In this document: piece after piece, positions 1 to 45,272 of the stretch
Numbering within the stretch: the stretch's first letter is position 1
How the letters are laid out: each line of letters begins with the position of its first letter
Sequence record: PP925841.1
DNA: 45,272 bases
Strand: one strand, 5' to 3'
DNA from: Escherichia phage HannyBb
Notes under the pieces: model-generated
What the model was told of the DNA's origin: nothing
The model's input: the letters and a program-made list of their open reading frames with translations, nothing else
The model's database searches: none
Position numbers and translations under genes: made by a program

Positions 1-2100
1 ATGGGTTTTTCATCAGCCCGAAATTTGGGAAGGGACATATCGGCAGGATTTTCCCCACCACGTCGCATGCCGATTTCGGAGGCTGTTAAAAAATTCATGC
101 GTGTTCCCAAGGGGGCTGGTAACTCGGTGCCATGGGATCCTGAACTGACACCCTACATCATTGAGCCCATGAACTGCCTGGCATCGCGTGAATACGATGC
201 GGTGATTTTTGTTGGTCCTGCGCGAACAGGGAAGACCATTGGTCTGATCGATGGATGGATTGTCTATACCATCGTTTGCGATCCTTCGGACATGCTCGTT
301 GTGCAGATGACCGAAGATAAGGCCCGCGAGCATTCTAAAAAGCGCCTCGACAGAACGTTCAGAAGCAGTGCGGCGGTAAAGAAAAGAATGAGTCCACGTC
401 GTAACGACAATAATGTCCATGATAAGACGTTCAGGGATGGCTCGTTCCTTAAAATTGGTTGGCCCTCGGTCAACATTATGTCGTCGTCGGATTACCGGTT
501 TGTCGCCTTAACCGATTACGACCGTTTTCCGGAGAATATCGACAGCGAGGGTGATGGTTTCTCCCTGGCCTCAAAACGTACCACCACATTTATGTCCGCC
601 GGGATGACTCTGGTGGAGAGCTCGCCGGGACGTGACATCTGCGACAGCAAATGGCGACGTAAGTCGCCTCATGAAGCGCCACCGACGACTGGTATTCTTT
701 CCCTTTACAATCGTGGTGACCGCCGCCGCTGGTACTGGCCATGTCCGCACTGCGGTGAATATTTTCAGCCAGCTATGGATGCCATGACCGGCTACCGTAA
801 TGAACCGGATCCCTTTAAAGCTAGTGAGGCGGCGTATCTACTTTGCCCGCACTGCAGCGGCATTATCACTGCGGAGAAAAAGCGTGAGCTCAATAGTGCA
901 GGAGTCTGGTTGCGTGAAGGTCAGGTCATTGATCGTAACGGCAACGTTTCCGGTGAACCGCGCCGCTCCCGTATCGCCAGTTTCTGGATGGAAGGGCCAG
1001 CTGCTGCGTATCAGACCTGGGCGCAACTGGTTTACAAATTACTGACTGCAGAACAGGAGTATGAAGCGACAGGAAGCGAAGAAACACTCAGGGCGGTTAT
1101 CAACACCGACTGGGGATTGCCTTATCTTCCTCGTGCCAGCATGGAGCAACGAAAAAGTGAACTGCTTGAGCAGCGGGCAGAGCCAGTTCCTTCCCGCAGT
1201 GTTCCGGATGGCGTTAATTTCCTTGTGGCGACAGTGGATGTGCAGGCGGGACGTCATCGCCGTTTTGTGGTTCAGGTAACGGGCTATGGCAGCCGTGGCG
1301 AACGCTGGATTATTGATCGTTACAACATCACGCAGTCATTGCGCAGTGACTGCGACGGGGAGAGCCAGCGAATTGATCCGGCCAGCTATCCGGAAGACTG
1401 GGATGTCCTGCTGACGGATGTTTTTCATAAAAGCTGGCCGCTGGCCTCCGATCCTTCTCAACAAATGCGACTGATGGCAATGGCGGTGGACTCCGGCGGT
1501 GAAGACGGGGTCACTGATAATGCCTATAAATTCTGGCGTCGTTGCCGTCGTGATGGCCTTGGTAAACGTATTTACCTGTTTAAGGGCGACAGCATCCGGC
1601 GCGCAAAACTGATCAGCCGTACATTCCCTGATAACACCGGACGAACGGGCCGCCGGGCGCAGGCCGCAGGTGATGTGCCGCTCTGGCTTCTTCAGACGGA
1701 TGCCCTGAAAGACCGGGTGAATAACGCGTTATGGCGTGACTCGCCAGGTCCAGGCTATGTGCATTTCCCTGACTGGCTGGGGAGCTGGTTTTACGACGAA
1801 CTGACGTATGAAGAGCGGAGCAGTGACGGGAAATGGAGTAAGCCGGGTCGCGGTGCCAACGAAGCTTTTGACCTGATGGTGTATGCCGAGGCGCTGGTCA
1901 TTCTGCATGGATACGAAAAGATCCGCTGGCCGGATGCACCGGAGTGGGCGAGCCGGGAAACCTGGCTGGAGTGTGTCCCGGACAGTACCGAACCGTCACC
2001 CTCACCGGAACCGGTACCCACGCCTGTTAAAAAACAAAAACGGAAGAAAACAGTAACTGACGATGTTAACCCCTGGCTGACTTCCGGAGGATGGTTATGA
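1..2100 (+). CDS. A: Terminase large subunit (lambda gpA family)
   Basis: 699-aa ORF with Walker A-like GPARTGKT near the N-terminus and a lambda-A-like layout; the ATG sits at base 1, so the true start may be set by the window edge (a GGAGGAATA Shine-Dalgarno is at the window's 3' end). Confidence 0.88.
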   Translation: MGFSSARNLGRDISAGFSPPRRMPISEAVKKFMRVPKGAGNSVPWDPELTPYIIEPMNCLASREYDAVIFVGPARTGKTIGLIDGWIVYTIVCDPSDMLVVQMTEDKAREHSKKRLDRTFRSSAAVKKRMSPRRNDNNVHDKTFRDGSFLKIGWPSVNIMSSSDYRFVALTDYDRFPENIDSEGDGFSLASKRTTTFMSAGMTLVESSPGRDICDSKWRRKSPHEAPPTTGILSLYNRGDRRRWYWPCPHCGEYFQPAMDAMTGYRNEPDPFKASEAAYLLCPHCSGIITAEKKRELNSAGVWLREGQVIDRNGNVSGEPRRSRIASFWMEGPAAAYQTWAQLVYKLLTAEQEYEATGSEETLRAVINTDWGLPYLPRASMEQRKSELLEQRAEPVPSRSVPDGVNFLVATVDVQAGRHRRFVVQVTGYGSRGERWIIDRYNITQSLRSDCDGESQRIDPASYPEDWDVLLTDVFHKSWPLASDPSQQMRLMAMAVDSGGEDGVTDNAYKFWRRCRRDGLGKRIYLFKGDSIRRAKLISRTFPDNTGRTGRRAQAAGDVPLWLLQTDALKDRVNNALWRDSPGPGYVHFPDWLGSWFYDELTYEERSSDGKWSKPGRGANEAFDLMVYAEALVILHGYEKIRWPDAPEWASRETWLECVPDSTEPSPSPEPVPTPVKKQKRKKTVTDDVNPWLTSGGWL

Positions 2101-2309
2101 ATCAGAATGATATTGAAGCCATGATTCAGCGTTATACGGAAGCTGAAATGGCGGTGCTGGACGGAAAATCCGTCACTTTTAATGGTCAGCAGATGACCAT
2201 GGAAAACTTATCTGAGATCCGGCAGGGACGGCAGGAGTGGGAGCGCCGCCTTGCGGCTCTGATTACACGACGACGGGGGCATCCCGGGTACCGGCTGGCG
2301 AGGTTCTGA
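2097..2309 (+). CDS. W: Head-tail joining protein W-like
   Basis: 70-aa ORF in the W position between terminase and portal; C-terminal RRRGHPGY resembles lambda W; ATGA overlap with the terminase stop and GGAGG 6 nt upstream. Confidence 0.7.
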   Translation: MNQNDIEAMIQRYTEAEMAVLDGKSVTFNGQQMTMENLSEIRQGRQEWERRLAALITRRRGHPGYRLARF

Positions 2310-3817
2310 TGGCAATTCTTGATGATGTGATTGGCGTTTTTTCACCAGGATGGAAAGCGGCAAGGCTGCGTTCCCGTGCGGTGATCCAGGCTTATGAGGC
2401 CGTAAAAACGACGCGGACACACAAAGCCCGGCGGGAAAACCGAACTGCCGACCAGTTAAGCCAGTACGGGGCCGTGTCGTTACGTGAGCAGGCCCGTTAC
2501 CTTGATAACAACCACGATCTGGTTATTGGTGTATTTGACAAGCTGGAAGAACGGGTGGTGGGGAAAAACGGGATTATTGTCGAGCCACATCCGGTATTAC
2601 GCAATGGGGCCATTGCCCGTGATCTGGCAGCGGAGATTCGCACCCGATGGAGTGAATGGTCTGTCAGTCCGGAAGTCACCGGGCAGTTTACCCGTCCGAT
2701 GCTGGAACGTCTGATGCTGCGTACCTGGCTGCGCGATGGTGAGGTGTTTGCCCAGATGGTTTCCGGGCGCATAAACAGCCTGACGCCTTCTGCCGGTGTT
2801 CATTTCTGGCTGGAGGCACTCGAGCCAGACTTTATTCCCATGACCAGTGATGAGAGCAACAGGCTGAATCAGGGCGTGTTTGTTGATGACTGGGGGCGTC
2901 CCGAAAAATATCTGGTGTATAAAAGTCGTCCTGTATCCGGACGGCAGATGGAAACCAAAGAAGTGGATGCAGAGCGAATGCTGCATCTTAAATTTGTTCG
3001 CCGTCTGCACCAGATGCGCGGGACGTCTTTATTGTCCGGTGTGCTGATCCGCCTCAGTGCCCTGAAAGAATATGAAGATTCTGAGCTGACTGCAGCAAGG
3101 ATCGCTGCTGCTCTGGGGATGTACATCCGCAAAGGCGACGGACAGAGCTATGAAACGGATGGTAATGACAGCAAGGAGAATGAACGCGAGCTTACCATTC
3201 AGCCAGGCATTATTTACGACGATCTGAAACCCGGCGAAGAAATCGGAATGGTGAAGTCGGATCGCCCCAATCCTAACCTTGAAACTTTTCGTAATGGTCA
3301 GTTGCGTGCCGTGGCGGCGGGCAGTCGTCTGAGTTTTTCCAGTACAGCGCGCAACTATAACGGCACTTACAGCGCCCAGCGTCAGGAGCTGGTTGAATCC
3401 ACTGATGGCTACCTGATCCTGCAGGACTGGTTTATTGGTGCCGTCACCCGCCCGATGTATCGTGCCTGGCTGAAACAGGCTGTGGCATCCGGTGTTATCA
3501 GGCTACCCCGCGATCTTGACCGTTCTTCACTGTATACCGCGGTGTATTCCGGACCGGTGATGCCGTGGATTGACCCTGTTAAGGAGGCTGAGGCTTGGAA
3601 AATTCAGATTCGTGGTGGAGCGGCGACAGAATCAGACTGGGTACGTGCAGGTGGTCGTAATCCGGATGATGTCAAACGTCGGCGCAAGGCAGAAATTGAT
3701 GAAAACCGCAAGCTGGATCTGGTATTTGATACCGATCCGGCCAGTGATAAAGGAGGCAGCAGTGCCGCAACGAAACGACAGGAGCCGCAGCACACCGACG
3801 ACCAGTCCGAAGAATAA
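2309..3817 (+). CDS. B: Portal protein (lambda gpB family)
   Basis: About 500-aa ORF directly after W, starting MAILDDVIGVF; size and position fit a lambda-type portal; the ORF-track start at 2237 is an upstream in-frame extension. Confidence 0.85.
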   Translation: MAILDDVIGVFSPGWKAARLRSRAVIQAYEAVKTTRTHKARRENRTADQLSQYGAVSLREQARYLDNNHDLVIGVFDKLEERVVGKNGIIVEPHPVLRNGAIARDLAAEIRTRWSEWSVSPEVTGQFTRPMLERLMLRTWLRDGEVFAQMVSGRINSLTPSAGVHFWLEALEPDFIPMTSDESNRLNQGVFVDDWGRPEKYLVYKSRPVSGRQMETKEVDAERMLHLKFVRRLHQMRGTSLLSGVLIRLSALKEYEDSELTAARIAAALGMYIRKGDGQSYETDGNDSKENERELTIQPGIIYDDLKPGEEIGMVKSDRPNPNLETFRNGQLRAVAAGSRLSFSSTARNYNGTYSAQRQELVESTDGYLILQDWFIGAVTRPMYRAWLKQAVASGVIRLPRDLDRSSLYTAVYSGPVMPWIDPVKEAEAWKIQIRGGAATESDWVRAGGRNPDDVKRRRKAEIDENRKLDLVFDTDPASDKGGSSAATKRQEPQHTDDQSEE

Positions 3818-44724: not shown

Positions 44725-45264
44725 ATGGAGTTGCTTATGTCAAATGTGAGCGGGATCGGTGATGCTTATTACTGGAGTGTTTTTAAAATCGCCGAGGCCT
44801 TTGGGCTTCACCGGGACACAGTAAAAAAACGGCTCCTCGCGGCCAACACTCCTGTGGCTGCGACTGTCAGGGGGAACCCCGTTTACGCCCTGCAGCATGT
44901 CGGGCCCGCCCTGTTTAGTGTGAAGCATGAGGCAGCAGACTCTGTTCATGATCCATCCCGTATGGAGCCGAAAGAGAGAAAGGACTGGTACCAGTCTGAA
45001 AATGAAAGGATCAAGCTGGAAAAGGAGCAGCGAAAACTCATCCCAGTTGATGAAGTAGTCATCGTCTATTCGTCCATGAGAAAGGCTGTCGTCCAGGTTC
45101 TGGAGACAATTCCGGATGTTCTTGAACGCGATTGCGCCCTGACTCCTCAGGCCGTCGGCGTTGTACAGCAGGCCATTGATGACCTGCGATACACTCTTCA
45201 GGAAAAATCCTACGAGGCTTGTGCTGCTGAATTAATTCCTGATGAGGAAGGAGAGAGTCTCTAG
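44725..45264 (+). CDS. Terminase small subunit (Nu1-like)
   Basis: 179-aa ORF immediately upstream of the wrap-around terminase large subunit, with an N-terminal HTH-like segment (YYWSVFKIAEAFGLHRDTVKKRL); start 44725 or 44737. Confidence 0.65.
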   Translation: MELLMSNVSGIGDAYYWSVFKIAEAFGLHRDTVKKRLLAANTPVAATVRGNPVYALQHVGPALFSVKHEAADSVHDPSRMEPKERKDWYQSENERIKLEKEQRKLIPVDEVVIVYSSMRKAVVQVLETIPDVLERDCALTPQAVGVVQQAIDDLRYTLQEKSYEACAAELIPDEEGESL

Positions 45265-45272
45265 GAGGAATA

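Follow-up and report, generated by a model that had tools for sequence, protein, structure and literature searches.

Escherichia phage HannyBb as a probable complete genome of a temperate lambdoid cos phage related to the Qin prophage

Functional phages resembling Qin, the cryptic prophage of Escherichia coli K-12, have already been described. Tritos (OV696610.1), which is prophage 3 of the adherent-invasive E. coli (AIEC) strain LF82, gives plaques and siphovirus particles (PMC9928086), and mEp460_ev081 (LR597641.1) is a functional phage in which dicB, dicF, dicAC and rem have been noted (PMC10448788). Here we analyze the 45,272-nucleotide record of Escherichia phage HannyBb (PP925841.1), the whole of which is referred to as the window (positions carry a "w" where other sequences are also cited). 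It is a member of the described group of mEp460, cdtI, Tritos and mEp460_ev081, its size lies within the range of these relatives (44.5-47 kb), and near-identical prophages are found in many sequenced E. coli. We read the window as the complete genome, of about 45.3 kb, of a temperate lambdoid siphophage that packages from a cos site, an undecayed relative of Qin whose circle has been opened at terL base 1, and we put the probability of this reading at roughly 0.88.

Gene order and closest relatives

Modules were identified by means of Pfam, PHROGs and Rfam, with start codons and names compared with those given by the Prokaryotic Genome Annotation Pipeline (PGAP) for the sibling prophage in CH4811. 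The resulting order is terL, adaptor, portal, protease-capsid, cement, Z/U/V/G-T/H/M/L/K/I/J, side fibres, pin, attP, int, xis, exo, dicB/DicF, repressor, cro, cII-like, O-like, Q, holin/endolysin/Rz-Rz1, cos and terS, which bears out the view of an initial annotation, made from the letters of the window alone, that every lambdoid module is present in canonical order. All 22 of the 22 Tritos structural proteins have full-length counterparts in the window (95-100% identity), as do its four lysis proteins, int, xis, exo, ydfD, dicB, hokD, ydfU and Q (90-100% identity). The structural and lysis genes had also been called intact, unlike those of the decayed Qin, and their full length relative to the plaque-forming Tritos agrees with this. 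Each module is at least 92-100% identical to that of a phage known to make plaques.

Tritos is 98.7% identical over w1-29154, a stretch that takes in the structural genes, attP, int, xis, exo and dicB/DicF, and beyond this point only patches are shared, although terS and the interval from cos to terS are again 100% identical and the Tritos record starts at the same cosN position. The two phages differ in their repressors (26% identical), in the N-terminal part of O, and in the Tritos cro, which has no counterpart in the window; Tritos has an ImmA/IrrE gene and ybcV that the window lacks, while the window has queH, rem and a 2-kb AT-rich segment after Q that Tritos lacks. The same head and tail genes are found at 94.8-95.5% identity in mEp460_ev081 and in mEp460 (NC_019716.1). 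The former also shares int/xis/exo/dicB, the immunity-replication module (98.1%), hok/rem and the lysis cassette (98-99%), and differs in carrying lom and another side fibre with an intact tfa, and in having no queH.

Alignment with Qin shows 13.7 kb in common at 92-99.5% identity and the same ydfJ attachment site with matching arms. The shared segments are tfa'-pinQ-ydfK-ynfT, intQ (99.5% identical to the int region of the window), ydfE'-ydfD-dicB-DicF, ydfA/B, the dicC region, hokD-rem-ydfU-Q, cspF/B, the lysis cassette, and cspI to gnsB; the dicBF operon, a DicA/DicC-type switch and Rem are all present in the window, as in the Qin lineage. Qin has neither w1-21948, which is the whole 22-kb head-tail arm and is intact here, nor w25290-27473, and its int and exo are pseudogenes interrupted by IS2, while both are intact in the window. 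Qin further carries relBE/flxA, and its packaging remnant is the Nu1-type nohA, which is unrelated to the DUF1441 terS of the window. By sequence, then, the packaging module is of the cdtI/Tritos type and not that of Qin, and the window shows what Qin looked like before its decay.

With lambda the window shares the gene order, the cosQ heptamer GGGTCCT, a 12-bp cosN with the left half GGGCGG and CG flanks, a cos site some 190-200 bp upstream of terS, and the families of the GpA-type TerL, the lambda-family portal and the Z/U/V/G-T/H/M/L/K/I/J tail genes. The differences are substantial, with a TerL that is 24% identical to lambda gpA, a TerS unrelated to Nu1, a fusion of ClpP-type protease and major capsid protein in place of the C/Nu3/D/E head, a RecE-like exonuclease in place of the Red exonuclease, and a DicA-type repressor with no cleavage domain. 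The head genes are thus only distantly lambda-like, and packaging and head together are, at the level of sequence comparison, of neither the Qin nor the lambda type. Lambdoid phages are classically defined by the formation of viable hybrids through recombination with lambda; mosaicism with other lambdoids is seen in the window.

Joined ends, cos site and terminases

The features of the packaging region, which spans the two ends of the record, are as follows.

44512-44518, plus strand: cosQ GGGTCCT, matched to lambda ends
44541-44552, plus strand: cosN GGGCGGGAGCGT, flanked by CG on both sides, matched to lambda ends
44553-44736, plus strand: candidate cosB, with an integration host factor (IHF) consensus at 44604-44616 and two TTTTCACCTG repeats at 44634 and 44711
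44737..45264, plus strand: small terminase TerS, 175 aa, DUF1441 family (Pfam DUF1441 1.6e-44)
1..2100, plus strand: large terminase TerL, 699 aa, GpA family (Pfam GpA_ATPase 5e-81, GpA_nuclease 1.8e-86)

The terS open reading frame (ORF) ends with the stop codon TAG at 45262-45264, which is followed by AGGAGGAATA and then by the ATG of the 699-codon ORF at base 1. Written out, the window terminates in ...GAGAGTCTC TAG GAGGAATA and opens with ATGGGTTTT, so that the Shine-Dalgarno-like end noted in the initial annotation can be read directly as AGGAGG at 45263-45268, ahead of the terL start. On circularization, the terL reading frame extends back over the join and is open from 45246 on. The same arrangement is found unbroken elsewhere. 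Tritos 1-732 equals w44541-45272 at 100% identity and Tritos 733 onward continues as w1 onward, while in the CH4811 chromosome the bases equivalent to w45272 and w1 are adjacent (locus L004, 37742 and 37743) and PGAP places there a DUF1441 protein, a gap of 8 nt and a 2,100-nt terminase gene from the same ATG. In 726 of 5,426 complete E. coli genomes, 713 of them with 99% identity or more, a 1,364-nt query that runs from cosQ over terS and past the join to terL is found without a break. The two ends of the window are neighbors in nature, as had been proposed.

The description of the window as circularly permuted holds for the record as it was opened and fails for the virion, since a cos phage has unique DNA ends and permutation therefore lies only in where the record begins. 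An opening placed exactly at the terL ATG suggests deliberate or automated re-orientation by software.

The lambda-like cos phages are defined by 12-nt 5' cohesive ends (PMC4669245), and among them cosN bp 7-12 vary naturally while cosQ is invariant (Feiss et al.; PMC4669245). Together with its flanks, cosN reads CACG/GGGCGGGAGCGT/CGCGG in the window and TACG/GGGCGGCGACCT/CGCGG in lambda, so that 8 of 12 positions are identical, with bp 1-6 the same and differences solely at bp 7, 8, 9 and 11. The composite cosQ/cosN pattern has a single match in the window and none in 100 shuffles, and the records of both Tritos and the cdtI phage start exactly at w44541; the Tritos paper (PMC9928086) contains no mapping of cos or termini. 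The distance from cos to terS is 197 bp, compared with 191 bp in lambda. Because the cosQ/cosN match, the start of these records at w44541 and the presence of both GpA domains in TerL coincide, we accept the earlier designation of the phage as cos-type. The candidate cosB interval contains one IHF consensus (for which matches are not enriched window-wide, with 3 observed against 2.3 expected) and the only two exact copies of TTTTCACCTG in the window.

The small terminase is 100% identical to that of Tritos and 42% identical to that of mEp460_ev081, and BLASTP finds no significant similarity between it and lambda Nu1 or Qin NohA (E = 4.6-5.7). Small terminases of the Nu1 family characterize lambda, 21 and N15, but the definition by cohesive ends does not require one. 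Comparison of w44553-45272 and w1-96 with mEp460_ev081 (locus L010, 45650-45865 and 1-618) shows that, next to an identical cosQ-cosN-I2, the two phages have different alleles of cosB, of terS and of the first 19-32 or so residues of TerL; homology between the two TerL proteins starts at residue 20, upstream of the alternative Met23 start annotated in Tritos. The cosB of mEp460_ev081 also holds a tandem duplication of about 100 bp. The unit formed by cosB, terS and the TerL N-terminus looks like a packaging-specificity cassette in the style of lambda and 21, built here on another TerS family. Since the cassette differs between phages with identical cosQ-cosN, it may offer a natural system for packaging specificity in the uncharacterized DUF1441 family.

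By analogy with lambda, the DUF1441 TerS would bind cosB and position the GpA-type TerL so that it nicks cosN; the resulting virion DNA would be linear, with 12-nt 5' cohesive ends of GGGCGGGAGCGT and a start at w44541, and packaging would terminate at the next cos via cosQ. A fuller proposal can be built on these steps, in which a viable Qin-type phage uses lambda-type cosQ/cosN served by a DUF1441 TerS through a swappable cosB-TerS-TerL N-terminus cassette, with a specificity distinct from that of mEp460_ev081 despite the identical cosN, and delivers queH to the lysogen as a cobalamin-independent route to queuosine-tRNA beside the host QueG. Taken as a whole, this proposal is speculative and we hold it only tentatively.

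Attachment site and competing explanations

The gap of 800 bp between ydfK and int contains the attachment site.

24082-24092, no strand: attP core TTATGGATTTC, from the three-way alignment with K-12 Qin attL and attR; target ydfJ

In this alignment the int-proximal arm follows Qin attR, the ydfK-proximal arm follows Qin attL (in ydfJ), and the 11-bp core is common to all three; an IHF consensus lies beside the core at 24108-24120. The match to the integrated CH4811 prophage ends at w24078, where the host DNA of the rspB side starts. There is a single copy of the core, with neither host bases nor a core duplication. With one arm of attP matching Qin attL and the other matching Qin attR, the window is in the excised and not the integrated configuration, free of flanking host DNA. 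The tfa-pin-ydfK-int stretch is contiguous in about 40 chromosomes, which was at first read as evidence against an attP; in strain 10153, the only one inspected, the contiguity is explained by tandem prophages whose junction recreates attP. The attP region of the window matches such natural junctions between tandem prophages at 99.3%. In E. coli 10153 (locus L002, 1-43500) the two Qin-type prophages stand in tandem at the same site with the attP-like junction between them, one of them carries paa and tRNA genes, and several insertion sequence (IS) elements disrupt xis and structural genes.

When re-cut at the attP core, the window is collinear in two blocks with the whole CH4811 prophage, which lies between rspB and ydfJ', from one of these genes to the other. 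Mismatches amount to 0-2 per 1.5 kb in the structural arm (about 5 in 24 kb) and 2-16 per 1.5 kb in the early region, with the exceptions of one divergent patch (w40582-44500) and one replacement (w43671-43891, 221 bp vs. 789 bp). This end-to-end collinearity rules out both host flanks and a chimeric assembly. No flanking chromosomal genes were found within the window; homology to integrated copies stops at the core, and it is there, at about 24082-24092, that host DNA abuts the prophage in integrated relatives, not beside base 1 or base 45272. A window consisting of a prophage with host flanks is rejected on these grounds. The earlier statement that the window contains no host genes therefore stands for flanking chromosomal genes and does not stand for cargo, as the phage carries the host-like genes cspB/F/I, ydfK, queH, hokD and gnsB in addition to hok/sok and dicB/DicF. 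Integration at ydfJ, the site shown by the att comparison, would proceed by Int/Xis/IHF recombination through the 11-bp core, with the need for IHF suggested by its consensus.

It is also important to consider how else such a record could have arisen. It may have been generated in silico, by cutting the region out of a chromosome at predicted att sites, joining its ends and rotating it, in which case the element might be cryptic and no longer produce phage. E. coli chromosomes commonly contain near-identical prophages in integrated form, the record has been edited by software, as its start exactly at the terL ATG shows, and the CH4811 sibling prophage has a frameshifted Rz, so that members of the lineage do decay. 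However, the attP of the window has exactly one core, no host bases and the match to natural junctions given above, and, compared with plaque-forming relatives, none of the structural and lysis genes, nor int, xis or Q, is truncated. We consider an excision in silico improbable, and even if it took place it would alter only the provenance of the sequence and not its coding content. A chimeric assembly that merged several co-resident lambdoid prophages would account for the mosaic relation of the window to any single phage, with Tritos patchy after w29154 and mEp460_ev081 matching other parts, and E. coli strains do often harbor several related lambdoids (a median of 2-3 matching places per genome). 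Yet the attP-rotated window is collinear with a single prophage in the complete CH4811 chromosome, and the pattern is that of ordinary lambdoid recombination and not of misjoined contigs, so that this explanation has next to no standing and is rejected.

Headful (pac) packaging, with the cos-like sequence left as a relic, draws on our literature search, which found no biochemical characterization of the DUF1441 TerS family. Against it, the TerL is of the cos-type GpA family with both domains, and functional lambda-like cos sites show exactly the conservation seen here in cosQ, in the left half of cosN and in the flanking CG dinucleotides. Over 75 bp, cosQ-cosN-I2 has the same sequence in mEp460_ev081 and is about 82% conserved in mEp043/mEp213. 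Given the GpA-family TerL, the two phage records that begin at cosN and the unique cos pattern, pac packaging is rejected as highly improbable.

Several points do weigh against reading the window as a complete temperate cos phage. For this exact sequence, closure, end structure and viability are inferred from relatives. The small terminase is not of the Nu1 family, the spacing of cosQ and cosN is 22 nt where lambda has 23 nt, and the TerS-binding sites in cosB are a guess from the two 10-bp repeats. Three gene fragments (tfa, methyltransferase and ydfB) are present, the pin gene looks orphaned, and the segment at 37100-39200, after Q, which may bear on late transcription, is absent from Tritos and Qin. 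With these points counted, the complete temperate phage remains our preferred reading, and it yields a clean annotation of one phage with assigned ends (cosN at 44541), integration site (ydfJ) and relatives.

Remaining genes of the window

The head and tail genes follow terL directly.

2097-2309, plus strand: head-tail adaptor (PHROG 118, 1.4e-37)
2309-3817, plus strand: lambda-family portal (Pfam Phage_portal_2, 5e-82)
3762-5789, plus strand: ClpP-type prohead protease-major capsid protein fusion in one ORF (Pfam CLP_protease 8.8e-37 and Phage_capsid_4 9.8e-55)
5876-6199, plus strand: cement/decoration protein (Pfam Phage_cement_2, 9e-21)
6192-6467, plus strand: head closure protein (Gifsy-2 family, 1.7e-17)
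6479..17839, plus strand: lambda-type tail module Z, U, V, G/T, H (tape measure), M, L, K, I, J (Pfam Minor_tail_Z, Phage_tail_U, Phage_TTP_12)
17900-20272, plus strand: stf-like side tail fibre
20272-20553, plus strand: second ORF of the side tail fibre region
20563-21594, plus strand: tail fibre
21637-21930, plus strand: small ORF of the side fibre region
21949-22060, plus strand: C-terminal fragment of tfa
22158-22748, minus strand: pin invertase, intact
23065-23298, minus strand: ydfK
about 23367-23480, minus strand: ynfT

Adaptor and portal are full length relative to Tritos, and all ORFs of the tail module are full length and 95-100% identical to those of Tritos. PGAP names the capsid ORF "ClpP-like prohead protease/major capsid protein fusion". 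At G/T there is a -1 frame overlap in which the T frame is open from 8644; the lambda slippery heptamer GGGAAAG does not occur at this overlap, where GGAAAAG at 8656-8662 is the sole candidate slip site. The four ORFs of the side fibre region (17900..21930; PHROG 4563 tail fiber, 7.9e-216) each have the same length as in Tritos. In the N-terminal part of the side fibre, 18250-18950 holds many 21-nt (7-codon) collagen-like repeats and a 189-nt tandem duplication (83% identity), which are typical fibre shaft repeats. From the tfa fragment to ynfT the window is 98.5% identical to the tfaQ'-pinQ-ydfK-ynfT region of K-12 Qin. Inverted crossover sites for Pin around a fibre segment were found neither among the repeats of the window nor with the Din-family crossover motif, so a Pin-invertible fibre segment is rejected and pin looks like an orphan inversion system, as in Tritos and CH4811.

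The integration, recombination, immunity and early genes extend from attP to Q.

24130-25410, minus strand: integrase (Pfam Arm-DNA-bind_2 and Phage_integrase)
25445-25696, minus strand: excisionase (Pfam DUF1233)
25769-28240, minus strand: RecE-like exonuclease (Rv2179c-like exonuclease domain)
28334..28936, minus strand: ydfD, dicB and DicF small RNA (sRNA); ydfD and dicB 98% identical to Tritos, DNA 98.1% identical to Qin
28885-28936, minus strand: DicF sRNA (Rfam 72.5 bits, gathering score 48)
30122-30529, minus strand: DicA-like repressor (Pfam HTH_3), 57% identical to K-12 DicA
30607-30834, plus strand: Cro/DicC-like (Pfam P22_Cro)
30818-31339: CII-like/YdaT (Pfam YdaT; PHROG 163 CII-like)
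31320-32285: O-like initiator (PHROG 391 replication initiation O-like, 9.7e-92)
32326-32748: Ren-like DUF977 (Pfam DUF977; PHROG 142 Ren-like)
33032-33697, plus strand: queH, epoxyqueuosine reductase (Pfam QueH 2.7e-65; same PGAP name in CH4811)
34141-34465, plus strand: sok RNA/hokD (Rfam sok, 115 bits, above the gathering score)
34682-34933, plus strand: rem antirepressor
35280-36329, plus strand: ydfU, HNH-like
36343-37095, plus strand: Q antiterminator (Pfam Antiterm 4e-50; PHROG 96)

The immunity-replication block w29786-32723 is 98.1% identical to that of mEp460_ev081 and differs from that of Tritos, while 34141-37095, from sok/hokD through rem and ydfU to Q, is 92.6% identical to Qin. 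The Pfam scan finds no S24 peptidase domain in the repressor, and no N gene was recognized in the window. Rem and DicA are a described antirepressor pair (PMC10448788), and on this basis lysogeny would be maintained through silencing by a DicA-type repressor without a cleavage domain, with Rem, and not RecA-mediated cleavage, as its antagonist. Replication would start from the O-like initiator, and the late genes would be switched on through Q.

Together with a methyltransferase fragment (about 32745-32930), the cargo gene queH separates the replication genes from hok/sok. The queH gene occurs in approximately 1,011 of the 5,426 complete E. coli genomes and in none of the named coliphage records of the phage collection, where its best match (78% amino acid identity) is to "Acinetobacter phage MD-2021a" megacontigs; that queH travels as phage cargo is a small point of possible use. 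There are no tRNAs in the window. Directly 3' of Q, where late-operon cargo usually sits, lies the AT-rich stretch of about 2 kb at 37100-39200 (36-39% GC), which is almost devoid of credible ORFs except for one of 61 aa at 38260-38445 (minus strand) with a hydrophobic C-terminus. Both Tritos and Qin lack this stretch, which is 99.5% conserved in about 30 E. coli prophages.

Between this segment and cos lie the cold shock-type and lysis genes (39211..42824), together with two cspA-type leaders that pass Rfam gathering scores.

in 39211..42824, before the holin: cspF (minus strand) and cspB (plus strand)
40693-40908: holin, 71 aa, full length relative to Tritos
40913-41224: ydfR, in the lysis cassette
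41221-41754: endolysin, full length relative to Tritos
41751-42248: Rz, full length relative to Tritos
41944-42198: Rz1, embedded in Rz, intact, with the lipobox LTSC and a proline-rich tail
42609-42824: cspI

The lysis region is 98-99% identical to that of mEp460_ev081 and 96.7% identical to the Tritos lysis cassette, and the 71-aa holin is one that we take to resemble S21 of phage 21, a phage of which no record was among the hits in the phage collection. The Rz spanin gene of the CH4811 prophage (rzpQ; locus L004, 33655-34153) is frameshifted where the window copy is intact, a sign of early decay in the lineage. At w43671-43891 the window has the 221-bp segment in the place where CH4811 (locus L086, 20663-21451), Tritos and Qin have a DUF1398 gene (ydfO/ybcV-like). 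The surrounding w40582-44500, about 4 kb, is the sole strongly divergent patch relative to CH4811, as would fit a stretch of recent recombination near cos.

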